Below are positions 698 to 21,678 of a stretch of 21,678 nt of DNA, in pieces; the stretch's first letter is position 1; every line of letters starts with the position of its first letter. Location: the UHGV virus genome UHGV-0168745; one strand, written 5' to 3'. The DNA is from a virus. The notes under the pieces are model-generated. The model was not told where the DNA came from and did no database searches. It saw only the letters and a list, made by a program, of their open reading frames with translations. Both the position numbers and the translations under genes were made by a program.

Positions 698-703
698 TCT
701 CAG

Positions 704-725
704 GGGGTGGGTCGCTCCCACCCTG
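704..725 (+). other. GC-rich intergenic stem-loop without U-tract (GGGGTGGG-tcgct-CCCACCCT)
   Basis: Inverted repeat read directly: 705-711 pair with 717-723 (7 bp plus a G-U wobble), 5-nt loop; lies between stop at 697 and next start at 745; no downstream T-run, so not a classic intrinsic terminator. Confidence 0.3.
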
Positions 726-744
726 GTAAACTCCGGAGAAGAGA

Positions 745-5692: not shown

Positions 5693-5732
5693 GGGTAGTC
5701 TATTCGATGAATAGACTACCCTACCTTTATTT
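5693..5732 (+). terminator. putative intrinsic terminator (13-bp perfect stem GGGTAGTCTATTC / GAATAGACTACCC, 3-nt loop, then TTTATTTT)
   Basis: Perfect inverted repeat 5693-5705 / 5709-5721, immediately after stop at 5684; T-rich tract begins 5 nt after the stem. Confidence 0.45.
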
Positions 5733-7856: not shown

Positions 7857-7973
7857 CTGAAGAAAAAATCAATCCTACAAAATGGCAACAACCTCTTTCT
7901 CGGAAGCCAGGGCCACCCAGACCAATTGATGGTCTGGTTTACCTGAGTCACCGACGGAGAAAATAAAATCTAG

Positions 7974-8004
7974 GGCGGTCTTATGACCGCCTTATTTTTT
8001 TTTT
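7974..8004 (+). terminator. strong intrinsic terminator (GGCGGTC-ttat-GACCGCC followed by a 13-nt T-rich run)
   Basis: Perfect 7-bp GC stem, 4-nt loop, then TTATTTTTTTTTT at 7992-8004; second terminator in tandem, about 120 nt after the first. Confidence 0.65.
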
Positions 8005-8585: not shown

Positions 8586-8626
8586 TACCTACCTCCTTGA
8601 CGGAGGTAGGTAAACTTATTTTTTTT
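8586..8626. terminator. bidirectional intrinsic terminator between convergent genes (TACCTACCTCC-ttgac-GGAGGTAGGTA, T-run on + strand, GCTTTTATTTTT on - strand)
   Basis: Perfect 11-bp inverted repeat 8586-8596 / 8602-8612, flanked by T-rich tracts on both strands; sits between the + gene ending at 8581 and the - gene ending at 8629. Confidence 0.6.
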
Positions 8627-9507: not shown

Positions 9508-11565
9508 TTAGCTCTCCGTACTGTCGCGACGATAAACTTTGATCGTCGTGTTGAACTGCGTCAACAGTACACCGCCTTCAGCTTTAATGTCCAGCGTGAT
9601 AGAGTAGCCATTGGCTTTATCATCCGCTGTCATATACGCACTCGGAGTAATGTCGGCAATATTATCCAGGCGACCTTCCAAACGCTCGGTGATTTTGTTT
9701 TCAATCATTTTCGCGCGTTCGTCGTCCGTCATACGGCTTTCACCGGACATATCTGCCCAAACTTGATCACTGACACGATAAACGTAGGTCAGGATGAAGT
9801 TAAACAGTGCGTTGTTCAGCACTGAACGTTCTTCGCTATAGATGGACTGGATAGCTGGGATGAACAGACGATAGTAGTCGCGGGAACGTGCAGTAACCAG
9901 AGACACATCCCAGTCGGACGCGTAAACCTCGTTACCTTTCCACGGCATACTCAGATCGTACAGATCTTCAATAATCGTCTCTTCACCACGGCTGAAACGA
10001 TACGCCGGTTTTGCACGACCTTCACCGGAACCGAGATACTTCGAGAAGAAGTTCGCAATGCTATAACACATCGGAACCGGTTTCTTGTAGCTCGAGTTAC
10101 GAATGAACGCAGACTGGCCGGTAATCATCCCACGACACGCTGGGGTACCGTAGTAAGATGATTCAGGTACGGACGTAATCATTTCGATCAACGCTGTCTT
10201 CACGTTCTCTTCGGTTTGTAAGTCATTACGACCTTCGTTATAAACGTGAGTACAGAGCGTCAGGAACGTATTACGAGAACGACCGATGAAATTCGTCAGT
10301 GCTTTCTTGGTATCCATGCTAAAGCCAGAATCCCAGAAACAGCCCAGAGAGTATTTCAGCTCGTTATCGTAACGGACTTTACCGCCATCCGGGAACAGGC
10401 TCATTTCACGACGTACGAGTTCGTCGTAAACGTCATTGCTCATGGTCCCGTTGCTACCGCCTTGCAGGTAGTGAATATTCGAAGCAGAGAAAACGATTTT
10501 ACCTACTTCATCAGACGGGTTAACTTGTAAACCGTCATACATCTGACCGGTTAAATCCAGACCGCCGAAGATATCGACCATATACGGGTCAGTGATGGCC
10601 GGTTTTGCATTCTGAATTTTGGACTGTGCCAGTTTCAGAACGGTTTCCAGGTTTTCACGATAGATGTAAAACTCTTCGAACGGACCGTAGTCGGGCAGGC
10701 CACCAATGTCCGGCATCGTCTGACGATAAGCATCTGGAACAACGACTTCGAAGTCCAGTTGGGTAGCCATCGGCTGATAGTATGCATCGGGCTTGAAGCT
10801 AACATTGATGCTGCTGAGACCTTTAAGGGTCTTCCAAATCACCGGTGATGTAACGCCTGCTAAGGTTTCAAACCACTGCAAAGCGTACATACGACCACCT
10901 ACGTTAGTCTGATAAGCAGACGCGATAGATGGGCTGGATTTTTCGTTCAGCGGAACCAGTTTAAAACCGAAACCGTTGACATCAGCACCCGCGTACGGGC
11001 CTTTAATGTCGAAGATCGGATAGAGTTTTGATTTCGCTTGGGTGGTTTCATCGGTCATTGTCCCTTCAGTTTCCACGCCTTTTTTCAGGGTGGATACATC
11101 TTCGACAACTTGCAGACGGAAGACCACTTTCAAGCCATCAACGTCTTCTTTCTTCTTCGGCTTACCACTTACGTCGTACTGGATAACGCCGTTCTTACGC
11201 TCATAAGCGGGAACTTTAGTTTCGAGTACGTCAGCCACCAGACGGACAGCTGCGATTTTCGCATCATCCGGTACCAGACGCTGATACATACACTCGTTAC
11301 CGTTGGCATTAAACATCGCCTGGAAGGGTGTGTTAAACGTCGCGTAATCGCCACGCAGGTCGAACAAATCACGACCAAGCAGAGACAATGCATTATCCCC
11401 GGATAACGGGAACGCCTCGTCGTCTACCCCGCGTGATGCAAAGGTGAAGATCAGCGGCTTATGAATCGGGTCACCAGTGGGACTCCGAACAAGTTCAGGG
11501 ACAGAGTTGTCCTGCCACCCTTGCTTGTTATTCAACGGCGCGCCGTTTCGTGGAATAAAACTCAT
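9508..11565 (-). CDS. large virion structural protein, 685 aa; tentatively contractile tail sheath (major capsid protein not excluded)
   Basis: Long ORF with GGAGA 6 nt upstream of ATG; size and coupling to the downstream 291-aa gene fit a sheath/tube pair. Assignment is architectural only. Confidence 0.4.
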   Translation of the reverse strand: MSFIPRNGAPLNNKQGWQDNSVPELVRSPTGDPIHKPLIFTFASRGVDDEAFPLSGDNALSLLGRDLFDLRGDYATFNTPFQAMFNANGNECMYQRLVPDDAKIAAVRLVADVLETKVPAYERKNGVIQYDVSGKPKKKEDVDGLKVVFRLQVVEDVSTLKKGVETEGTMTDETTQAKSKLYPIFDIKGPYAGADVNGFGFKLVPLNEKSSPSIASAYQTNVGGRMYALQWFETLAGVTSPVIWKTLKGLSSINVSFKPDAYYQPMATQLDFEVVVPDAYRQTMPDIGGLPDYGPFEEFYIYRENLETVLKLAQSKIQNAKPAITDPYMVDIFGGLDLTGQMYDGLQVNPSDEVGKIVFSASNIHYLQGGSNGTMSNDVYDELVRREMSLFPDGGKVRYDNELKYSLGCFWDSGFSMDTKKALTNFIGRSRNTFLTLCTHVYNEGRNDLQTEENVKTALIEMITSVPESSYYGTPACRGMITGQSAFIRNSSYKKPVPMCYSIANFFSKYLGSGEGRAKPAYRFSRGEETIIEDLYDLSMPWKGNEVYASDWDVSLVTARSRDYYRLFIPAIQSIYSEERSVLNNALFNFILTYVYRVSDQVWADMSGESRMTDDERAKMIENKITERLEGRLDNIADITPSAYMTADDKANGYSITLDIKAEGGVLLTQFNTTIKVYRRDSTES

Positions 11566-11627
11566 GGAACGTCTCCATATTCAGTCTTTAAGACCTTGAA
11601 AAAGGGTCATACTAAGGTATCATACTC
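11566..11627. promoter_or_regulatory. 62-bp divergent intergenic region (putative divergent promoters/operator)
   Basis: Separates divergent starts at 11565 (-) and 11628 (+); contains near-palindrome GTCTTTAAGAC (11584-11594) and direct repeat TCATACT x2 (11608-11614, 11620-11626). No canonical -35/-10 pair identified. Confidence 0.3.
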
Positions 11628-12536
11628 ATGGCACTCAAAAACGCTTACAACGGTACTCCGTTTAATACCATAGACCTTACCCGCTTACACGCGGATTTGG
11701 AACTGGCTCGTAAAGTCAATCAGACCGTTGCACAGTCTGACGAGGTACATTACGTTATCGAAACTGCCGATGTAAAACCGTTCCCGTTACCGATCGTCAT
11801 CGGTGATGACGTGTACGTTGACGCACGAACTTTCACTACGCTGGATAAGAATGGCGTACTGAAAATCCGTAACCCCATTGAGCACCAATTACGTCTCGAC
11901 GAAGCACGTTGGGAATTAGTGTGGAAACGGAACAATGATAAGCTCGGTACATTAATGTCACGCATGTCTTATCACCATGAGATCTTCAGCAGGTGGATTA
12001 GCGATGCGATTGAACACACCTACGCACTTGCTCCATATCAAAGCGGTCAAGTCAAGGCACTCGCTGCCCTGTTTTCCGTAGGACAGTTCTACAACAACTT
12101 CGAAGATGAAGTTAAAATGCTGAGAATGCAGCAATCGTTAGAGCGTGAACTTCGCCTCGGACCACAGATTTTTGAAACCGTTACTGGCAACACAGAATTC
12201 CTGTTCCCGCGTAATATCGGTGAATTTGTCGAGATGGTCAAAGCCGCGGACATTACCGCACGCTTAAAAGATCTGAGTGTCGTTAGTCTGCAAGGTATGT
12301 TGGCGACAAGCCTGGGTAGCTTTATCAGCTACGACCGTCAGCTCGTTACCAGCGCTATCGAATATCCACCATCTCTGTTCGTCATTGTCCGCACGTGTTT
12401 AGAGAACGTGATATTTAACCGCTCCCGTTTAGGTGGCCTGATTAAGAAATGTGACGTGGCAAAACGTAAAGACGCGTTTATCATGGCATACGACACGCTG
12501 CTTAATCAAAACACCAAACCGATAAACATCCAGTAA
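11628..12536 (+). CDS. hypothetical protein, 302 aa
   Basis: ORF with TAAGGT 9 nt upstream; first gene of a + strand block that ends with the terminase. Confidence 0.6.
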   Translation: MALKNAYNGTPFNTIDLTRLHADLELARKVNQTVAQSDEVHYVIETADVKPFPLPIVIGDDVYVDARTFTTLDKNGVLKIRNPIEHQLRLDEARWELVWKRNNDKLGTLMSRMSYHHEIFSRWISDAIEHTYALAPYQSGQVKALAALFSVGQFYNNFEDEVKMLRMQQSLERELRLGPQIFETVTGNTEFLFPRNIGEFVEMVKAADITARLKDLSVVSLQGMLATSLGSFISYDRQLVTSAIEYPPSLFVIVRTCLENVIFNRSRLGGLIKKCDVAKRKDAFIMAYDTLLNQNTKPINIQ

Positions 12537-12546
12537 GAGGTCCACT

Positions 12547-15063
12547 ATGGAGAACTGGCTGGTCGCCCACGCCATCCAAAAAGCGTGGCAGCGTCCATAT
12601 CTCGACGGGGTGCTTAACATCGCACCCTTCCGTCTTTCACCCAAGACCGGGGCGATCGGCTTTTTCAAACACGGTCGGATTCCGGTCGCTTTACCGAAAG
12701 AGAATTCGTGGTGGCACGCTTACGCAATTGATAAGCTCCACGTAAACTGGGGGAACCTTGCTATTCCCCTAAACCGTTGGAAGAAGCTTTCTACGTGTGT
12801 AAACGGCTTCAGTACCTGGATTCAGGTGTATAACGAAAACGGAACAACGATTCCGTCCGAATACGTGTACTTCTACCGTAACAGCGCAGGGATGGTTTAC
12901 ATGGCTATCCCGCAATCCGATCGCTACGCCTGGCTGGACAACGATCCTTGCTACCTGCGAATTTATCCGGGTTACAGCGGGGGTGAAAACGCACCGTATA
13001 TTAACCCGACGACGGTTGAGTTCTATTCACCGCCGAACCGTGAACAGGTGCAAAAAGTTATTGACCGATTCAACTATCTGAAGCAACAAAACAAAGGGTA
13101 CGTTGAATTCTGGTTAAACGGGGAACTGGTTGATTCTCCGAAGCCTGCGGACATTAAAACGTGGGACGATATCGATATCCGGGTTGATGGTCGTGTTCGT
13201 CGCGTTGTGGAATTCCGTTGTGGGGACTTACAGACGTTTATGTCCACACTGGACAGCAAACGAAAATACCTCCTTCACATTCCGAAAAAAGACGGTATCT
13301 GGATTTTTAATAACGATGCAGAAATCCAGCTTTACTGGAAAGGCAGGGGGCGTTATTACCACCGTCATCGTCACCAGGCATTGCGGCAACTGACATGGAA
13401 CGATCTGTCTATTCCGACTGAACGTATTGCGAAATACCGTAATGTCTTTAGCGAATCTATCACCGACTTGGATGATTTGGTCATCCGTCTGATTATTCGC
13501 GATGACTATCTGGATATTACACCGCTGTATAACTCCGCACACATTCATGATCTGTATCGGTTGTCTGATGACCTGATTATCGATGCGATGATTGGTGCAA
13601 ACGCAAACGTAACAGAGTGGCAAGCGGCTAATCTGGAACAAGCTGCTTTTAACCGACTGGCAGCGGCTAAGCTTGAGAACATCACGCGAGATTTGTGTAC
13701 CGATGCCTACGGTTACAACGCAGTAAGTCGTTATACTGCTGACACCCCACAACGACTTACGTTAACCGAAGGGGGCTACCGTGCTACGCTGCCTGCGTTA
13801 CTGGCAACCAACTCGACGGTATACGAATACGACGCCGATGGGTTGTTGTTAGAGGCGCATCAAAACCGTGGCTACGACGTTTACCAGGCACGTAACCCTA
13901 ACGCCAGAATTATCGAAGCGATTGAAGGGGATAAAGACGAGGCAGTAACTATCGTTGATAACGCCGCCGACTTCGAGATTCAAGAAGGTCAAAACGTTAA
14001 CTTGTGGTTACGTAAAGTTATCGATGACATTCCACGAGACGAATATCTGAAAGCGGTAGAAGGGACGGATTACACCCGTGACGGTAATAACATTACCTGG
14101 ACGGTGGACCGTACTCGTCGTCATCCTACGGTGATTTACGACGATCGTCATCTGTATTTCGAAATCGATGTGGCAGTCAGAGAAGGGGAGATTCGTATTC
14201 CTATTCTGGCTCGTAACCAAGAAGGTAGTCAGCGCACGTTATGGATTCCGATGGAAACCGTTGAAGTGTGGTTAAACGGGCACCCTCTGGTACACGGTAT
14301 CGATTATCATGTCATTTGGCCAGAAATCGTCGTAGTGTGTAAAGCGTGGATGAGTGACGGGGACGAAAACCGTATCGCGGTACGTTGTCGTGGTGTAACC
14401 GGTGAACTTCGTGTTCCAAAACACGGCTTTGTCTCCAGTGGCTTGCTGTCGAACAACAGCCAGTTCGATTGTCGTGATGATAAAGTTATCCGTGTAGTTG
14501 CAGGCGGTTCTTTACTGTTACGCGACGAAGTGGTATTCCGTGAAGACAACACGGTGGGTGTCAATATTGTCGATGACGGCTATCCGTACTCTGTTGACGA
14601 TCCAACCATACCGTTACGTACGCTGGTAACAGGGGATACGTATACGTTACGTGATGTGGCTCGTGACTTGGACTCCCGTGTAGAAAACTACATGTCTAAC
14701 TGGTTCCCGACACCGCCACCACAGAATCCTGTACCGTTGCCGCATTTGTATCATCTTTATTCGCCAACGTTGAATAAAATCTTGTGGGATTACTTACAGG
14801 GTATTCTCACCCTGGTAGAAGACGACCCGGATTACCGTATCTCAACGACACAGTTGGATGAGATTATGGAGCGGTATAAAGACCTGCTTCCGTTCGACCC
14901 TGCGTATATCGGTTACGATAAAGCGTTTGTCAAACTCCATCCTCATGTGAAATATCAAACCGTGGAAGTTAACGAACTCGGGTTCGCGTTTTTGGATCGC
15001 GTTAACGAGCGGTATCTGAATGGTGAAGTTCAGCTGAACCAGTATCTGAAAATCAAGGGTTAA
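12547..15063 (+). CDS. hypothetical large protein, 838 aa (possibly virion/morphogenesis)
   Basis: 2.5-kb ORF with TAAGAGG 6 nt upstream; no enzymatic motif recognised by eye; co-oriented with and upstream of the terminase. Confidence 0.65.
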   Translation: MENWLVAHAIQKAWQRPYLDGVLNIAPFRLSPKTGAIGFFKHGRIPVALPKENSWWHAYAIDKLHVNWGNLAIPLNRWKKLSTCVNGFSTWIQVYNENGTTIPSEYVYFYRNSAGMVYMAIPQSDRYAWLDNDPCYLRIYPGYSGGENAPYINPTTVEFYSPPNREQVQKVIDRFNYLKQQNKGYVEFWLNGELVDSPKPADIKTWDDIDIRVDGRVRRVVEFRCGDLQTFMSTLDSKRKYLLHIPKKDGIWIFNNDAEIQLYWKGRGRYYHRHRHQALRQLTWNDLSIPTERIAKYRNVFSESITDLDDLVIRLIIRDDYLDITPLYNSAHIHDLYRLSDDLIIDAMIGANANVTEWQAANLEQAAFNRLAAAKLENITRDLCTDAYGYNAVSRYTADTPQRLTLTEGGYRATLPALLATNSTVYEYDADGLLLEAHQNRGYDVYQARNPNARIIEAIEGDKDEAVTIVDNAADFEIQEGQNVNLWLRKVIDDIPRDEYLKAVEGTDYTRDGNNITWTVDRTRRHPTVIYDDRHLYFEIDVAVREGEIRIPILARNQEGSQRTLWIPMETVEVWLNGHPLVHGIDYHVIWPEIVVVCKAWMSDGDENRIAVRCRGVTGELRVPKHGFVSSGLLSNNSQFDCRDDKVIRVVAGGSLLLRDEVVFREDNTVGVNIVDDGYPYSVDDPTIPLRTLVTGDTYTLRDVARDLDSRVENYMSNWFPTPPPQNPVPLPHLYHLYSPTLNKILWDYLQGILTLVEDDPDYRISTTQLDEIMERYKDLLPFDPAYIGYDKAFVKLHPHVKYQTVEVNELGFAFLDRVNERYLNGEVQLNQYLKIKG

Positions 15064-15065
15064 TC

Positions 15066-16706
15066 ATGGCCTTAACAACTGACATTATCAACAAGGATCG
15101 CGGGTTCCGTGTGTGGCGTCCTGAGGAACTCTATGCGCCCGAACGCCCTACCGGATACGTACCGAACCCGAAAGATCTGATCGTTAACGATATCACTTCA
15201 GGTTTCGATATCGTCGTAAGCGTTAACTACGCCAAACCGTCATGGGAAACCGAACCGTGGGGTGGTGTAGGGGTGGCTAACCAAGACGGACGTCTGAACG
15301 GCCACTACCCGCTACGCAGTGATAAATACCGCGTCTACGTGGATTCTACGAAGCTTCCAGCAACGATGGTGTTGGATAATGCACTCACCTTCGAAGGGCC
15401 GGATGTGGACGGCGTGCGTATTTTCCGGGGCAGTAAAGTCGACGACAGTGCTGAAATCCTCTCCGGCTATTACAAAGACGGTAAGTTAAAATACACTTAC
15501 CTGCCGGTACAGACGATTTCCGTCGAAGGTGCTGAACGTGTCGTTAAACAAACGCTACCGGGTGCCTGCCTAGCTGAGGTCGAAAACGGTGAAGAGTGTA
15601 TGTTCGCGGTTTACTCCGACGTCGGTAACGTGGTACAAATCGGTCATGCGCACATCATCAAAACGAATCTGGTGATGGCACAAGAGACGCCAGCGCGTAC
15701 GGTGTTAGGTATTAAGTTGGTGTCACCGTTCCTGGTGGACAACGACGGCACCACACTGACGCTACCGATCAACATGCCAATCGAATCCATACCGCTTTGG
15801 TGTGATGTGGTTTACAGTGACGGTACAAAACGTTTACCTATCGACCAGGCGCGTGTAAAATTCAATGGGCTGCGTAACGCAGGCTCTCACGACACGTTCT
15901 ATATCGCCTCTAACTCAGGTAATACGTTACCTTGTGTACTGAGCTATAAGCTGTCCAAAGGTGAAACTTACGGCGGTACCGATATCGTAGGCGATACCAT
16001 CGTGAAGAACTACACGGCGGTAACAGAACAGGTCGACGGTGCCTACAGCATGAAACTATTCGTTGTACCGAGATGGTTAGATGCAACGCGTGGTTATCGT
16101 CTGGACTTCTTGCTGTATAACCTGACGCGTGGTAAAGTTTACGATGCAACCGCACACGTGAACTACACCACAGGTACAACGTTTGACCCGTTACTGATGG
16201 GTGTTAAACAGCGTCTTAACGTCCAGGTCGATATCAGTAAGGTGGACAGCAAGTTCCGTGCGTTTATTCAGTCGCAGTCGTTTGCGATTACGCTGGTCAA
16301 TCCGGGTAACGAACTGAACTCGAACTTCATTCTGGAATACCTCCCAGACGGTATGAAGTACGGGGAAAACGTGTGGGCGGAGTTTAAATACTCTAACGTC
16401 AGCTATTCTGAAATCGACGTCAGCAACAAAGTGGCTTCGAAAGCAGAATGGCTGAAGTTGTTGTACGAACCGATTTATCCGTTGTACGATCGTCGTAATG
16501 AGTCTGAGCCACCTGAACCCACCCACTTCGAAATCCACGTCGGGGGTAAAGTCTACACCTACAGTGTCGATGAGTGGTTGGATAAAAAGGTTATCGATTA
16601 TCGCGTACCACTCGATGCACCGTTGGTGATTCGTTGGATACGCCGTACACCAACCGATACCTTAAACTTAGCCGCATCACCAATGCTGGCGCACCACATC
16701 GAATAA
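15066..16706 (+). CDS. hypothetical protein, 546 aa (possibly virion/morphogenesis)
   Basis: ORF starting 2 nt after the upstream stop (TAATCATG); AAGGG Shine-Dalgarno; no motif recognised. Confidence 0.65.
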   Translation: MALTTDIINKDRGFRVWRPEELYAPERPTGYVPNPKDLIVNDITSGFDIVVSVNYAKPSWETEPWGGVGVANQDGRLNGHYPLRSDKYRVYVDSTKLPATMVLDNALTFEGPDVDGVRIFRGSKVDDSAEILSGYYKDGKLKYTYLPVQTISVEGAERVVKQTLPGACLAEVENGEECMFAVYSDVGNVVQIGHAHIIKTNLVMAQETPARTVLGIKLVSPFLVDNDGTTLTLPINMPIESIPLWCDVVYSDGTKRLPIDQARVKFNGLRNAGSHDTFYIASNSGNTLPCVLSYKLSKGETYGGTDIVGDTIVKNYTAVTEQVDGAYSMKLFVVPRWLDATRGYRLDFLLYNLTRGKVYDATAHVNYTTGTTFDPLLMGVKQRLNVQVDISKVDSKFRAFIQSQSFAITLVNPGNELNSNFILEYLPDGMKYGENVWAEFKYSNVSYSEIDVSNKVASKAEWLKLLYEPIYPLYDRRNESEPPEPTHFEIHVGGKVYTYSVDEWLDKKVIDYRVPLDAPLVIRWIRRTPTDTLNLAASPMLAHHIE

Positions 16707-16715
16707 ACATAACAA

Positions 16716-16741
16716 GCCTCCTACCCGAAAGGGTAGGAGGC
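16716..16741 (+). other. perfect 11-bp hairpin with GNRA (GAAA) tetraloop upstream of the terminase start
   Basis: GCCTCCTACCC-gaaa-GGGTAGGAGGC read directly; no U-tract; the terminase Shine-Dalgarno GAGGAG (16742-16747) starts right after the 3' arm. Confidence 0.45.
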
Positions 16742-16752
16742 GAGGAGTCTGT

Positions 16753-18861
16753 ATGATATTGCGAGAATCGGATTGGCGTTATTATCCGGGCGCGATTGTG
16801 GACGATAAAACCACGAACAAATCGTTTATCAAGTTTGCCAATATCCTAAAAAAGTTAGGCGTAAAACACTGGTATATCCACCTCGCGTTACATAACCCTT
16901 TACTGCAAGGGGTCGATCCTTTTGACGAAAACCTAACGGATGAACAGAAGGCGTACATCACTATCGAGTGCGCCGAAAACCCCTGGTACTGGTTTAGAGA
17001 ATGTGTCAGGGTACCTGCGGACGGTATGAAATACGGTTCCCCGTTCCGTATCGACCGTGGTAACTTTTCAATGTATTGGATTTTCTTCAACAACATTGAC
17101 GCCGCAGTCGAGTTCCTACGTCAGCACGGTAAAACCGTCGGGATGAGTGGGTTACTGTTATGGTTAATCCGGTTTCTGGAAAACTCCCGTACGATTCTTA
17201 TCACAAAAGGCCCAGCCCTGCGTGAAGAAACCATTAACAAACTCAAACAGTTACGTAATGGTCTACCGCCGTATCTGTGGCCTGCACATCCCGATGACCC
17301 AGATAACCGTGAAACGTTTGCCTGCTTAGCGCAGGGTAATAAACTGATTACCGGTATCGGCCAAAACGACCCAGAATCTGCTAACGGTATCGGTCGTGGA
17401 CTGACCGCAGGACGTCTGTTCTCGGACGAAGGCCCCTTTACCAAAAATATCCATCACATCCTACCTGCTGCACTTGCATCAGGTACAGCAGCGCGTTTGA
17501 TTAACGAATCTGAAGGGGTTCCTTACGGTAACGTATTTGCAACAACACCTGGCGACTTAGCCACGGAAGAAGGCAAATACATGTACGAGCTGATGACGTC
17601 AGGGATTATGTGGGATGAACGTTACATTGATATCCCAACACGTAAACAGCTGATTGAGATTATTCGCTCGAACTCAACAGCAGAAGTCCCACGTATCATG
17701 TTCTACGTGAAATACAACCACCGTCAGCTCGGTACCACTGATGAACAGTTGGCAGCAATGATTGCGAACGCCAAAGGTACGCCTGATCAGATCCGTCGTG
17801 ACTTCGGGGGTGAATGGACAACCGGTGGTCTGAACAAGCCGTATTCGGTGGAAGATGCAGATCGTATGAATGCATCCCGTATGCGTGCCGTGTTTAAAGA
17901 TATTTCACCACAAAACTATGTTACCGACTGGTACTACACCGAAGCGGAAATGATGACGAAGCTCAAAGACCGTCACGTCATCGGCCTGGACACTTCCGAA
18001 GCGGTAGGTCGAGACGCGATCGCGATGTCCATCGTCAACGCCGTCACTGCGGAGTACGCCGGTAAGTTAACCGTTAACGAATCCAACGTTATCTCGTTCG
18101 CGATTCATTTAGCGGATTTTATGGTGCGATATCCTAACACGGTACTGATCCTGGAACGACGTTCTACGGGCTCGTCTGTGGCTGATGCAATTATCTTACA
18201 GCTTCAGAGTCGAGTGACAGATTTACATCGTAGATTGTTTGTGCGAATCACTCAGGACTACTCACGAACGGACGATCTCTACAAAGAGTATCACCGTGGC
18301 CCTATTGGTAGTGCCGAGAAGTTCTGGAACAAATTCCGCAAATACATCGGTTTCTCTACTGACCAGGAAAAACGTCGTAAACTGTACGGTGAGGTATTCA
18401 CTACAGCGTTGCGCTTATCCGCGGACAAACTCCGTTGCGGAGAACTCATCGACCAAATACTTAACCTCGTGGAGAAAAATGGTCGTATTGACCACAAAGC
18501 TTCAGGTCACGATGACCTCGTGATTTCTTGGTTACTTGCAATGTGGTTATTGCTGTTTGGGAATAACTTAGGGCATTACGAAATCAACAACAGTCGTTTG
18601 ATGATGCGTAATAGAAACTTAGCGGAGAATCGAGAAGGGGTGGATGAAGAGTTACAGCTCGAGGAGGAAGCGCGACAGCAGGAACTGATGGGGGAAATTG
18701 AGCGTCTTGTACGAACCACCAACGGGTTATTAGACCCGATTCAAGCAATGGCTGCTCGTAACCGTCTCCAGTCCCTCATTGCTCAACTTAACACTGATAC
18801 ACAAAACGTGGCGTCAATGGAAAGCTTGAGAGAGCTTATCCAGCGTCAGAGGATGAAGTGA
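16753..18861 (+). CDS. terL: terminase large subunit (T4 gp17-type ATPase/nuclease), 702 aa
   Basis: Deviant Walker A FLRQHGKT (residues about 121-128) resembles T4 gp17 SRQLGKT; C-terminal GHDDLVISWLLA resembles the T4 gp17 nuclease-domain motif (recalled as GYHDDLVMSLVIF). Extra C-terminal coiled-coil-like segment (EELQLEEEARQQELMGEIERL). Confidence 0.8.
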   Translation: MILRESDWRYYPGAIVDDKTTNKSFIKFANILKKLGVKHWYIHLALHNPLLQGVDPFDENLTDEQKAYITIECAENPWYWFRECVRVPADGMKYGSPFRIDRGNFSMYWIFFNNIDAAVEFLRQHGKTVGMSGLLLWLIRFLENSRTILITKGPALREETINKLKQLRNGLPPYLWPAHPDDPDNRETFACLAQGNKLITGIGQNDPESANGIGRGLTAGRLFSDEGPFTKNIHHILPAALASGTAARLINESEGVPYGNVFATTPGDLATEEGKYMYELMTSGIMWDERYIDIPTRKQLIEIIRSNSTAEVPRIMFYVKYNHRQLGTTDEQLAAMIANAKGTPDQIRRDFGGEWTTGGLNKPYSVEDADRMNASRMRAVFKDISPQNYVTDWYYTEAEMMTKLKDRHVIGLDTSEAVGRDAIAMSIVNAVTAEYAGKLTVNESNVISFAIHLADFMVRYPNTVLILERRSTGSSVADAIILQLQSRVTDLHRRLFVRITQDYSRTDDLYKEYHRGPIGSAEKFWNKFRKYIGFSTDQEKRRKLYGEVFTTALRLSADKLRCGELIDQILNLVEKNGRIDHKASGHDDLVISWLLAMWLLLFGNNLGHYEINNSRLMMRNRNLAENREGVDEELQLEEEARQQELMGEIERLVRTTNGLLDPIQAMAARNRLQSLIAQLNTDTQNVASMESLRELIQRQRMK

Positions 18862-19097
18862 TGGCTCCAATTTACTATTTGCTCGTGTTCTTTTCGTGGA
18901 TCGCGACGTATAAAATGATCCGAGAGAGTTACCAAGCGATAAAGGACTACGGTCGAACGCAAGGAATTCCTTTACGAAAAACACGATACGCGCAAGCATT
19001 GGCAGTATTTGGACTCATGATTGCGGGGACGTCAACCACGTACGCGCTAAACATGGTCTACTCGATACACCTCCTGGTAATGTCCGGGGCCCATTGA
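18861..19097 (+). CDS. small membrane protein, 78 aa, two predicted transmembrane segments; start overlaps terminase stop (TGATG)
   Basis: ATG 18861 overlaps the terL stop TGA 18859-18861; GAGGA 7 nt upstream; hydrophobic stretches PIYYLLVFFSWIATY and ALAVFGLMIAGTSTTYALNMVYSIHLLVM separated by a charged loop. Confidence 0.4.
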   Translation: MAPIYYLLVFFSWIATYKMIRESYQAIKDYGRTQGIPLRKTRYAQALAVFGLMIAGTSTTYALNMVYSIHLLVMSGAH

Positions 19098-19114: not shown

Positions 19115-19157
19115 TAGCCAGTAACCCGTTCGGGTTACTGGCTAACTCTTATTTTTT
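19115..19157. terminator. intrinsic terminator between convergent genes (13-bp stem TAGCCAGTAACCC / GGGTTACTGGCTA, loop gttc, then CTTATTTTTTATTT)
   Basis: Perfect inverted repeat 19115-19127 / 19132-19144; T-rich tract on + strand overlaps the stop codon of the - strand gene. Confidence 0.55.
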
Positions 19158-20532
19158 ATTTCTGCAACGAACGAATCAAGAAATACAACAGCAGCGCATT
19201 GCGTAATGCGGCTAATGCCGATTCGTGTCGGATATGAGTTTCTTTTGCTGCGAGTTTTTCAATTCGTGAGCGTAAAGATAACACATACGGGTTCGGCGAT
19301 TTAGACGCCTGATACAACGCACGCATACGCTGTAATACCGTTACCGCATCGTTAAAGTTAATGCGGTTAGTGACGATTTCATCGAACGCATGAGACAACG
19401 TGTCTTCCATGATGCTGTTGATTTCATCACGTTTCTTACCAATCGGTAATCCTGCGATGTACGCCAGGAGCGTTTTAAGGGCAGCGGGTGATGCTTTAGG
19501 CACCATCTCCAACACCACACGGGCCAGTTCCTCTTTGTACAGATTGTTAATGTCGTAAGACGCATCAAACAAATTCTGTTTTGCGATTTCCAACGCGCCG
19601 ACCTTGTCACGAATCACAGACTGACCGTCTAACTCGATACGCGCAGATTGGCTCACCACACGGGCGTTCTCACGGCGTACGCGGTCGAGCACCGCGTAAT
19701 AGTCCTTCACAGTTTGTTTGGTACGTGTGTTCAAATCCGTGATATAACGCAGAACCAGATCGGGGGTATCAAAACGTTTTACCGCGTCGTAGTTCGGGTA
19801 TTCCGGGGAACAGAAATAGGTTGAGCGTTCTGCCATATGCAGACCCCAGTTCCCCAAACGCCGAATATCGAACTTCATCGACAACATTGAATACGCAGCT
19901 TCTGCGGCAGGTAGGTCAACCGGTTTCGGAAAGAAGTGATAGTAGATACTCGAGTAGAATTTAAACTGGAGTATCGTCACTAAGTCAATTGCTGCGGCGT
20001 GGATTTCTTTGTCGCCAAACTTCGGAATCATCAGATGCAGTAAATACACAATCGTGAGGTTGTAGGTGTCCCCAGCAACCTGCCAATCGGTATTAATCGA
20101 CTGAGATTCTTTAATCAGTTCTGACAGATAGTCTTCGTCAACGTTGATAACTTCGTCGAACAGACGATTACGGTCGGAATCGAAAAAACGAATGCTCTGA
20201 ACCCCGAGTAAGTTAGACCCTAACCATTCCACGTTCCCTTCTCGGGAAAGCACGCCACTCACATAGTGGCGAATTTTAGAGGCCAGTTTTCGGTCTACGG
20301 TGACACGATTAAATACGCTGTCGAACGCTTTACGTAGGCTGTCGTCACGACGGGATTCGTGCGCAACACCCAGCCCCATCGGGACGTAACCGCCGAAGCC
20401 ATAATCGTAATACAAACCAGGGTTGTGGGATTCGGTATCGAAGAACGGATCACGGCCGAACGATTCCTGAGCGACCCGCGTTCCGGCTTTCTGGTAGCAG
20501 CCGGATGTAAAATCATAAACCAGTTCAGCCAT
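19156..20532 (-). CDS. hypothetical protein, 458 aa
   Basis: Long - strand ORF with GAGG 5-9 nt upstream of ATG; no catalytic motif recognised. Confidence 0.6.
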   Translation of the reverse strand: MAELVYDFTSGCYQKAGTRVAQESFGRDPFFDTESHNPGLYYDYGFGGYVPMGLGVAHESRRDDSLRKAFDSVFNRVTVDRKLASKIRHYVSGVLSREGNVEWLGSNLLGVQSIRFFDSDRNRLFDEVINVDEDYLSELIKESQSINTDWQVAGDTYNLTIVYLLHLMIPKFGDKEIHAAAIDLVTILQFKFYSSIYYHFFPKPVDLPAAEAAYSMLSMKFDIRRLGNWGLHMAERSTYFCSPEYPNYDAVKRFDTPDLVLRYITDLNTRTKQTVKDYYAVLDRVRRENARVVSQSARIELDGQSVIRDKVGALEIAKQNLFDASYDINNLYKEELARVVLEMVPKASPAALKTLLAYIAGLPIGKKRDEINSIMEDTLSHAFDEIVTNRINFNDAVTVLQRMRALYQASKSPNPYVLSLRSRIEKLAAKETHIRHESALAALRNALLLYFLIRSLQK

Positions 20533-20605: not shown

Positions 20606-21629
20606 ATGAGAAATTACTTACGTAAACCCGCTTGGCACAGAATGCTGCGTGAGGGCACCATCGACCGCAATCAAAACGTCAAGATGTGGGTACTCCCACA
20701 TGGCGTGATTTGCGATTTAGTTCGCGTCGGTGGTATGGACATCCTGCGTAACGGAACTTACGATGCTGTCAACTCGTTTCTTGCTCGAGAGCTGGCAGAA
20801 GCCGGGTTACACGGAGAGATTCTGTTTTACACTACCCGTGTGATTCCACAAACCCTGTCGAAATGGTTAACATACTGGTTATCCAGTGACCCCGACGCGT
20901 CAGACCCCGAACTGAGTTCGGTGACGATTACGACACTGGGGCAATACCCCACTAAACCGTTACCGTTCCAGGTCAACGTGGTAGAACCGTTAATCGTGAG
21001 AGCTGGGGATGTGTTTGACATGATCAAAGTCAAATCCAGAAACCAAGCGGTGTCGCAATTCCTCATCGAAACGGAAAACGACGTGTTTCGATTGGAGCCG
21101 GTACGCAAGACAGACGCCACGCTACTGGCGGTTACCGATTACGGGATTGTCTGTCGTTCCGCAGAAGGTCACACGTTCCTGTGCACGATTTTGTCACGAC
21201 GTATCCAAGCTCAGTTAGCGCATTACAAACTGAGCTTAGAAGACATCATCGGCACCACGTTACGTATCGAATACACGATGTACACCGAAGGGAATCGACT
21301 GTGTAATTACAAGTCGCCTATCGCTTATCGCGCACTGGCGTTAGACAACCTCGGTGATTGGGTTTCAACGACATACGATGGGCCTTCGCCGTTTAAAACG
21401 ATACCGACACAACGGCCTGCATTGCTAACGGTAACGCGCTGCAACCGGGCGGAAATCTACGAAGAAAACGGGGTGATTTACGGCCTGGAACGGGAGACGG
21501 GTTTAACACTGTTTCGTTTCCGTCGTGGCCCGGAATACGGGCGTTACGCTGCTGTTTTCGAACGGGAAGGGGAACAAGAAACCTGGCTATTCGATTCGGA
21601 TTTCTCGGTTGACGTTATTGACCCTGAGG
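20606..21629 (+). CDS. hypothetical protein, 3'-partial (at least 341 aa); not in the supplied ORF track because no stop occurs before the window ends
   Basis: ATG 20606 with AAGGAG 7 nt upstream; frame translated by hand stays open to the window end and runs into adapter sequence from 21630. Confidence 0.55.
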
Positions 21630-21678
21630 CTGTCTCTTATACACATCTCCGAGCCCACGAGACCCTAAGACATCTCGT
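21630..21678 (+). other. Illumina Nextera library adapter (Tn5 mosaic end + read-2 adapter + 8-nt index + start of P7), not biological sequence
   Basis: CTGTCTCTTATACACATCT (reverse complement of the Tn5 mosaic end) followed by CCGAGCCCACGAGAC, then CCTAAGAC (index-length octamer), then ATCTCGT (start of P7 ATCTCGTATGCC...). Confidence 0.9.

Follow-up and report, generated by a model that had tools for sequence, protein, structure and literature searches.

Stem-loops that lie between cistrons and stabilise mRNA are exemplified by the REP hairpins of malE-malF, the hairpin of the Rhodobacter puf operon and the 3′ hairpins of T7 processing sites. Hairpins immediately 5′ of a Shine-Dalgarno sequence (SD) are represented by those of the ompA 5′ UTR and by the T4 gene 43 operator, which are located at transcript 5′ ends or are bound by protein via conserved nucleotides. 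The hairpin described here, located between a virion structural gene and the gene of the terminase large subunit, shares features with both groups. With the intercistronic stabilisers it has in common a stable stem-loop between co-directional cistrons, the lack of a U-tract, a structure that is kept over sequence and an upstream product needed in excess, but its sequence is unrelated to REP and it is far too short for a T7 RNase III site. With the ompA hairpins and the gene 43 operator it shares the position directly 5′ of the SD, but it is internal to a probably polycistronic RNA and has no conserved nucleotides across genera.

A further counterpart is found in phiKZ, and phages related to phiKZ transcribe genes by their own multisubunit RNA polymerases (PMC10914365). 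The phiKZ gene order gp27-gp26-gp25 is the order also found at the locus studied here, and the 139-nt gap between gp26 and gp25 holds a hairpin directly 3′ of the gp26 stop codon, AAAGCCCCCTAGG-TGGTT-CCTAGGGGGCTTTATAACGT, with the tail TTTAT. This hairpin is the mapped termination site T006 at 14840 (ONT-cappable-seq; Putzeys et al. 2024, PMC10914365 / bioRxiv 10.1101/2023.10.13.562163). In the same gap lies the late promoter P006 with its TSS at 14812 and a 75-nt leader, and the transcription units cover the terminase gene gp25 (bioRxiv 10.1101/2023.10.13.562163). The present hairpin resembles T006 in its syntenic place, its GC-rich pyrimidine/purine arms and its short loop, but it has no tail, its gap is only 46 nt long and the SD stands right against the stem.

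The hairpin at the terminase junction

The window (the whole stretch of DNA that was analysed, 21,678 nt) shows in its region 14000-19000, with more than 90% of the length covered, approximately 75% nucleotide identity to the Erwinia phages phiEaH2, Asesino and Stratton, to Salmonella phage SPN3US and to their relatives, and by this similarity it is assigned to an SPN3US-like jumbo phage genome. The terminase protein has 81-85% amino acid identity to the SPN3US and Asesino terminases and 34% to those of phiKZ-like Pseudomonas phages. Uncultured relatives in IMG/VR, with genomes of about 220-225 kb, are closer, their terminase identity being 96-98%. The features of the junction and of the genes around it are as follows.

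11628-12536 and 12547-15063, + strand: two further upstream cistrons of 302 and 838 aa (ORF list; PHROGs 3227 and 3184)
15066-16706, + strand: upstream cistron, a 546-aa virion structural protein with its TAA stop codon at 16704-16706 (ORF list; PHROG 3430, E = 2e-216)
16707-16715, + strand: A-rich, G-free spacer ACATAACAA, 9 nt from stop codon to hairpin, single-stranded
16716-16726, + strand: 5′ arm GCCTCCTACCC, pyrimidine-rich, resembling an anti-SD and covarying with the 3′ arm
16727-16730, + strand: GAAA (GNRA) tetraloop, read from the sequence
16731-16741, + strand: 3′ arm GGGTAGGAGGC, holding an SD-like AGGAGG at 16735-16740 that is paired in the stem
16742-16747, + strand: terminase SD GAGGAG, 0 nt after the stem and 5 nt before the ATG at 16753, mean P(unpaired) 0.72
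16753-18861, + strand: terminase large subunit, 702 aa (ORF list; PHROG 2, E = 9e-64; same annotation in relatives)
18858-19097, + strand: gene after the terminase, in the same co-directional tight block
19115-19144, + strand: canonical tailed terminator, a 13-bp stem then ACTCTTATTTT, between convergent genes and closing the block, the reference for a true terminator of this phage

The 546-aa protein is homologous to SPN3US gp259 and corresponds by synteny to phiKZ gp26, and in relatives it is annotated as a virion structural protein. The identity of the downstream gene, called a terminase in an earlier note made from the sequence of the window, is borne out by the PHROG match and by the annotation in relatives. 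In the intergenic table the gaps of the upstream block are 10 nt between the 302-aa and 838-aa genes and 2 nt before the 546-aa gene, and these genes and the terminase gene are probably co-transcribed. The block is met from the other side by a minus-strand gene at 19156-20532, which converges on it.

All 11 pairs of the stem are perfect Watson-Crick pairs, 8 being G-C, and in an inverted-repeat search its arms were 100% complementary. The perfect 11-bp stem with a GAAA loop at 16716-16741 that the earlier note had reported is thereby confirmed, and it lies far beyond what shuffled sequences yield. Alone the hairpin has a dG of -23.4 kcal/mol; its 76-nt context folds with -29 kcal/mol, compared with -12.9 +/- 3.1 in dinucleotide shuffles (z = -5.3), and none of 200 shuffles equalled it. 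Perfect hairpins of at least 11 bp occur 4 times in the window where 0.025 are expected (200 dinucleotide shuffles), and in the window and in SPN3US alike the terminase-junction hairpin has the highest GC content and stability in its length class. Past the stem the sense strand reads GAGGAGTCTG, with only 2 T in 10 nt, and the SD follows with a gap of 0 nt rather than the single nucleotide claimed before. A search of Rfam for a known RNA family gave nothing usable: the whole window gave no match to Rfam 15 at the gathering threshold, and in E-value mode the sole match with E <= 1 in 16600-16850 was DUF3800-X, at 18 bits compared with a gathering score of 38.2.

Conservation of the pairing and its strand

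The earlier note had proposed a search for the same hairpin before the terminase genes of related phages, and a tetraloop hairpin of 9-12 bp was found at all 27 junctions investigated. The set comprised 18 GenBank phages in the five genera Erskinevirus, Seoulvirus, Machinavirus, Wellingtonvirus and Derbicusvirus, together with 9 IMG/VR contigs. In these relatives the stem is GC-rich, the loop has 4 nt and the whole gap spans 42-55 nt, the stem beginning 5-12 nt past the stop codon after a variable, A-rich spacer. The stem itself varies greatly, being CCTCCTCTCC in phiEaH2, CCTCCACCCC in SPN3US, CTCCTCCCC in ChrisDB, GTACCCCCGGCC in Wellington, AGGTCTAGGGG in CR5 and Derbicus and GGGTCTAGGG in Phobos. 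The pyrimidine/purine design is exemplified by CCTCCTCCCC as well as by the SPN3US stem, and Derbicusvirus has its purine and pyrimidine arms exchanged. The loops found across lineages are GAAA, UUCG, GCAA, AAAA, GCUU, GGUY, GGCC and UUGC.

Since MAFFT misaligned the Derbicusvirus hairpins with their swapped arms, covariation was scored in 16 distinct sequences. Double-sided changes were found at 7 of 12 pairs, and the covariation score was 0.342 compared with 0.117 in shuffles, of which 0 of 500 reached the observed value, while registers slid along the alignment gave at most 0.16. Paired cells made up 88.5% in these sequences and 77% in shuffles. Among the closest relatives the basal pair is G-C in the window, G-U in the relative L023 and A-U in the relative L024, while the loop goes from GAAA to GCAA and so remains GNRA. 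No nucleotide of the hairpin was found to be invariant across all lineages once Derbicusvirus was counted. It is thus the folded structure that is selected, with pairing under purifying selection and a structure of generic kind.

The strand on which the structure acts was read from the pairs and from the loops. Counted by a loop-anchored script over the inner 10 pairs of all 19 distinct sequences, there were 182 Watson-Crick pairs, 5 G-U pairs and no A-C. Of 22 lineages, 15 have a GNRA or UNCG loop when read on the + strand and 1 when read on the - strand. The hairpin is a sense-strand RNA structure, and the one-way wobble pairs together with the strand-biased tetraloops rule out a symmetric DNA palindrome. 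An element acting as DNA, such as a cruciform or a palindrome bound by protein when packaging starts, could be suspected from the perfect inverted repeat adjoining the terminase gene, but it is effectively excluded. Tolerance of G-T in one orientation and strand-specific tetraloops are RNA signatures, whereas a palindrome or cruciform is symmetric; a sequence-specific DNA-binding site is moreover unlikely because the sequence is not conserved, and hairpins of identical type stand at about 50 SPN3US gene ends.

The wobble pairs and the tetraloop bias are also evidence against a purely antisense function, in which antisense RNA running through the terminase gene, for example from the 19156-20532 gene, would be stopped by the hairpin while sense transcripts pass. 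Read on the minus strand, the spacer forms a T-rich tail containing TTAT, and in a consensus scan the minus-strand reading was the top terminator-like site of the window. The window has TTGTTATGTTTATTC as this tail and L024 has TTTTATTTTTTATTC (with a C before it if the stem is 11 bp), and 12 of 22 lineages pass the criterion for a minus-strand tail. The 19115 terminator, for its part, has a weak minus-strand tail in the window and in SPN3US, and 9% of the mapped terminators in six phages are antisense to genes (PMC10914365). Such strand-selective termination of antisense RNA is nevertheless very unlikely. On the minus strand the 5 G-U pairs become A-C mismatches, with none of the reverse kind, and the stable tetraloops are nearly all lost there. 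The hairpin persists in the lineages of Derbicusvirus and of Huxley-type Machinavirus although no minus-strand tail is present there, and a TAA stop codon followed by an A-rich sense spacer accounts for most of the T-richness.

Terminator-type hairpins in the window and in SPN3US

Every other strong hairpin of the window is followed by a T-rich tail with TTAT or a T run, namely TACCTTTATT at 5693, ten consecutive T at 7971, AACTTATTTT (+ strand) and GCTTTTATTT (- strand) at 8586, and ACTCTTATTT at 19115. A whole-genome scan of SPN3US for stable sense-strand hairpins at most 35 nt downstream of a stop codon gave 51 such hairpins, 37 of them with a T-rich or TTAT tail. Among the 37 tailed hairpins UUCG is the top loop (15) and the 5′ arms are G-poor, as in CCCTCTTACC, CTACCCTCTCC, ACCCTACTCC and CCTACCTCCC. 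The G-poor 5′ arms, short loops and TTAT tails in SPN3US agree with the published phiKZ terminator motif, BCCYCCCC-HWWD-GGGRRGG-BYTTATKYYGT (PMC10914365).

The window stem, GCCTCCTACCC-GAAA-GGGTAGGAGGC, has the pyrimidine 5′ arm and purine 3′ arm of the phiKZ type, and its start 9 nt past the TAA is likewise a position of phiKZ type. A covariance model built from the terminase-junction hairpins alone retrieved about 20 canonical SPN3US terminators, with E = 0.004-1. Canonical SPN3US-like terminators (those at 5693, 8586 and 19115 and the 37 tailed ones) share with the junction hairpin a 9-13-bp stem, a UUCG or GNRA loop, a G-poor 5′ arm often containing CCTAC or CTCC, and a location 3-30 nt past a stop codon. 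In the canonical ones a YTTAT or T-rich tail comes 1-4 nt past the stem, and what lies beyond is in most cases a long gap or a convergent gene, whereas the junction hairpin is never tailed and abuts the next ribosome-binding site (RBS). A T-rich or TTAT sense tail after the junction stem was found in 0 of 22 lineages, the G-rich SD being there instead. The junction hairpin is therefore best seen as a tail-less member of the terminator-hairpin family of the clade and not as an invention specific to the terminase gene.

Composition of this family also accounts for a link that the earlier note had drawn, by CCTACC/GGTAGG-type sequence, between the junction hairpin and those at 5693 and 8586. The sequence is partly common to the three: the 8586 hairpin has CCTACC/GGTAGG in both arms, and the 5693 hairpin shares GGGTAG/CTACCC with the junction hairpin while a CCTACC overlaps the boundary of its stem. 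The hexamer occurs 12 times in the window where 6.1 copies are expected, an approximately 2-fold enrichment reached in 5 of 100 shuffles, and it was not found conserved at the junction in the other genera. A specific connection of the three sites was accordingly rejected, and the shared letters are reinterpreted as general terminator-stem composition.

Kinship with terminators raises the question of termination at the junction itself. As a leaky terminator or pause site the hairpin would stop a fraction of the phage RNA polymerases and hold the terminase transcript below that of the upstream structural genes. Its stem and loop are of the type of the clade's terminators, it has the position of the mapped phiKZ site T006, and it tops its length class in GC content and stability in both genomes. 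In phage 201phi2-1, 52 of 132 mapped 3′ ends are canonical and intrinsic-like, and non-canonical ones terminated in reporters (PMC11512511). A tail-less hairpin might still terminate part of the time. As an account of the junction this is judged unlikely, however, as a G-rich sequence (GAGGAG in the window) follows the stem in every lineage. With multisubunit RNA polymerases a strong RNA:DNA hybrid after a hairpin disfavours intrinsic termination, which is established for bacterial RNA polymerase and presumed for the phage enzyme, and the retention of a tail by 37 of the 51 SPN3US post-stop hairpins makes the tail appear to matter.

The earlier note had held the hairpin to be an RNA element rather than a terminator. 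What stands of this is that it is a sense-strand RNA structure, that it is selected and that a U-tract is absent in 22 of 22 lineages; the distinction from terminators is weakened by the terminator-family stem and loop and by the T006 position.

Possible roles in terminase expression

Stem end and ATG are 10-12 nt apart in four genera, Derbicusvirus having 20-22 nt, and this distance leaves no possibility of a promoter downstream of the hairpin. The late promoters of phiKZ end in TATG at the TSS (bioRxiv 10.1101/2023.10.13.562163), and the only TATG at the window junction, at 16752-16755, overlaps the terminase ATG. A late promoter of the terminase gene's own was rejected, as transcription starting at this TATG would give an RNA without start codon or SD; the motif is also absent at the junction in the Huxley-type Machinavirus lineages, CR5 and Derbicus. 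With no room for a promoter, the terminase is probably expressed from transcripts that cross the hairpin.

The preferred reading, given a probability of about 0.4, is that the hairpin is a read-through, terminator-derived intercistronic stem-loop that partitions the stability and expression of the late mRNA. A late polycistronic transcript would carry it as an intercistronic sense-strand structure, and the phage RNA polymerase would read through the tail-less hairpin into the terminase gene. If the phage enzyme behaves as bacterial RNA polymerase is known to do, intrinsic termination should fail here, given that the U-tail is missing and a G-rich sequence follows the stem. The helix would then most plausibly be a decay barrier at which 3′-to-5′ exonucleases are stopped and the mRNA of the upstream structural genes is stabilised, and after any cleavage in the A-rich spacer the hairpin would cap the 5′ side of the terminase segment. 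A single transcript might in this way yield virion proteins, which are needed in abundance, and terminase, which is needed catalytically, in unequal amounts. Within this proposal, read-through, co-transcription and a role in stabilising or partitioning the message are presumed. Compatible with a decay barrier are the stability of the stem-loop, its position between co-directional packed genes and the selection on pairing rather than on sequence, and the lack of room for a promoter argues for co-transcription. With no invariant nucleotide, the function appears from the sequences compared to be generic and not sequence-specific.

Two observations count against a decay barrier or add to it. The minus strand has a canonical-looking T-rich tail in about half of the lineages, which counts against this reading, and the near-fixed abutment of stem and SD is not required by a pure decay barrier and hints at a translational component. 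In addition, phiKZ, which is related to the SPN3US-like phages, encodes an inhibitor of the host RNA degradosome, and the need for decay barriers could be reduced by such an inhibitor. A literature search for a transcriptome of an SPN3US-like phage found none.

Processing by RNase III, one of the cleavages that the earlier note had envisaged, is unlikely. Substrates of this enzyme have about two helical turns, while the junction helix has 9-12 bp, to which at most 2-4 weak pairs are added, and a site of the T7 R1.1 type was rejected as the helix is too short. A protein-bound translational operator of the T4 gene 43 or MS2 replicase type was also rejected: the hairpin does adjoin the RBS, but loops and stems vary and no nucleotides are conserved.

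The translational component could in principle be the whole function, with the helix against the SD setting ribosome loading. [quoted passage not shown] The distance of 10-12 nt from stem end to ATG is kept in the four abutting genera despite differing sequence, in ChrisDB, SPAsTU and Wellington the helix is longer by 2-4 bp and includes the 5′ part of the SD, and Derbicusvirus has an outer helix in which UCUCG is paired with the SD region. In nucleus-forming phages transcription and translation are spatially separated, and the hairpin would on that account be fully folded before ribosomes arrive. Against this stand the 7-8-nt spacer between stem and SD in Derbicusvirus and BONAISHI, the lack of conserved nucleotides for a protein operator and the occurrence of the same hairpin type at many junctions without an RBS after it.

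Predicted accessibility of the SD does not favour ribosome loading as the whole function either. An SD-like motif precedes the terminase gene at the same spacing in all relatives, and P(unpaired) of the functional SD ranges inconsistently from 0.22 to 0.77 across the lineages in which it was scored; in four lineages the in-stem decoy GGAGG was scored instead and the zeros obtained are not meaningful. The functional SD lies outside the main stem, which is not the arrangement of an SD-sequestering thermometer or expression platform, and with accessibility intermediate and inconsistent, SD sequestration or a riboswitch-like switch was rejected as a conserved feature. The additional SD in the 3′ arm, which the earlier note had described as sequestered, is indeed paired as AGGAGG at 16735-16740, but this decoy is not conserved, GGAGG being absent from the Wellingtonvirus and Derbicusvirus stems, and it is a by-product of the pyrimidine/purine arms. 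Control of ribosome loading as the main function is on this balance considered rather improbable.

A stronger version, quite unlikely in our estimate, is that hairpin and SD together form a dedicated, lineage-wide device for terminase control in nucleus-forming jumbo phages, in which a very stable tetraloop helix, folded beforehand and stacked on the SD, would gate ribosomes on exported mRNA and perhaps double as a strand-selective terminator that lets sense transcription pass and stops antisense transcription. If this were true, the junction would represent a new type of bifunctional intercistronic element and not a degenerate terminator. The element as found is a previously undescribed instance of a terminator-derived intercistronic stem-loop, ordinary in kind, and it does not signal a new class of mechanism.

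For the read-through stem-loop that is preferred here, comparison within the wider family is informative on the tail. Annotators should be aware that 'terminators' called from a hairpin alone in these genomes may be RNA elements that the polymerase reads through. SPN3US is genetically tractable and the element is therefore directly testable, and the contrast between phiKZ and the SPN3US-like phages is a natural experiment on the part played by the U-rich or TTAT tail in termination by multisubunit RNA polymerases of jumbo phages. The same contrast bears on how these phages balance the amounts of structural proteins and packaging enzyme. Two solutions are seen in one phage family, a terminator plus late promoter in phiKZ and RP12 and a tail-less hairpin abutting the RBS in the SPN3US-like phages and BONAISHI. 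In Ralstonia phage RP12 a gap of 151 nt contains a GAAA-loop hairpin followed by the tail TTTTTATG, an arrangement like that of phiKZ, and Erwinia phage Ea35-70 has a 66-nt gap in which the hairpin is followed by a TTAT-containing tail. In Vibrio phage BONAISHI the gap is 51 nt and a tail-less hairpin is followed by 7 nt, GGAG and the ATG, an arrangement that resembles the window. A hairpin after the gp26-family gene is thus widespread in the family, with tail and promoter present in some lineages and absent in others.

Tailed and tail-less hairpins between genes

The canonical terminators of the window have a phiKZ-like architecture, in which a stem-loop is followed 1-4 nt on by YTTAT or a T run, and are located as follows.

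5693-5721, terminator
7971-7994, terminator
8586-8612, terminator between convergent genes
19115-19144, terminator between convergent genes

In both of the terminators between convergent genes the hairpin can be read on either strand. The minus-strand tail at 19115 is weak (TAGTTTAACAGA), and it is likewise weak in the counterpart of this terminator at 236771 of the concatenated pieces of the related Salmonella phage SPN3US.

A second intercistronic hairpin lacking a T-rich tail, in addition to the one at the terminase junction, was observed in the window, and two more were seen in SPN3US between co-directional genes with the next start codon close by.

Window 698-744, gap between ORFs 5-697 and 745-1038, holding at 704-724 the hairpin GGGGGTGG-GTCGC-TCCCACCC
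SPN3US 205184-205205 (L039-L043 concatenated), minus strand, TAGGGGGTG-GCAA-CACCCCCTA, separating gp238 from the tail-fibre gene gp239
SPN3US 33372-33399 (L039-L043 concatenated), plus strand, GCCCCTCTTT-TTTTGTGC-GAAGAGGGGC, 3 nt 5′ of the gp36 ATG

The local fold z-score at the 704-724 hairpin is only -1.2. Its SPN3US counterpart, GGGCGGG-TCGCT-CCCGCCC, occupies the gp241/gp242 gap (L043 18195-18241), and in this counterpart a T-A pair has become C-G, which is a compensatory change. In the SPN3US hairpin at 33372-33399 the 3′ arm contains the SD. Given the two further SPN3US examples, read-through-type hairpins in these genomes are not limited to the terminase junction.

A predicted outer helix at the Derbicusvirus terminase junction

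In the Derbicusvirus phages Phobos, CR5 and Derbicus, the stop codon is followed directly by a conserved UCUCG, which is able to base-pair with CGGGA around the terminase SD and so form an outer helix that encloses the main hairpin. The MFE structures of Phobos and Derbicus contain this helix; that of CR5 does not. The helix would be unwound by ribosomes as they finish translating the upstream gene, and it is possibly a translational-coupling switch specific to Derbicusvirus.

The divergent gap and the end of the window

The following features were found in the second half of the window.

11566-11627, 62-nt divergent gap between a tail-sheath-like gene (9508-11565, minus) and the gene at 11628-12536 (plus)
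about 20606 to the window end, plus strand, long ORF with a good SD, AAAGGAGTTTTAAA-ATG
20827-21120, minus strand, 97-aa ORF
21630-21678, last approximately 49 nt, CTGTCTCTTATACACATCT at the start and then CCGAGCCCACGAGAC

Read on the minus strand, the divergent gap is GAGTATGATACCTTAGTATGACCC...GAATATGGAGACGTTCC-ATG and carries three TATG motifs, the last of which directly precedes GGAGA, the SD for the gene on that strand. The late promoters of phiKZ end with TATG at the TSS, and the motifs in the gap are possible candidates for late promoters.

The long plus-strand ORF corresponds in position to SPN3US gp263 and is absent from the ORF list because it runs off the window end; the 97-aa ORF on the opposite strand at 20827-21120 is accordingly likely to be spurious. 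The terminal CTGTCTCTTATACACATCT and CCGAGCCCACGAGAC are what we take to be Nextera transposase/adapter sequence, and the contig seems to finish in sequencing adapter that was left untrimmed rather than in phage DNA.
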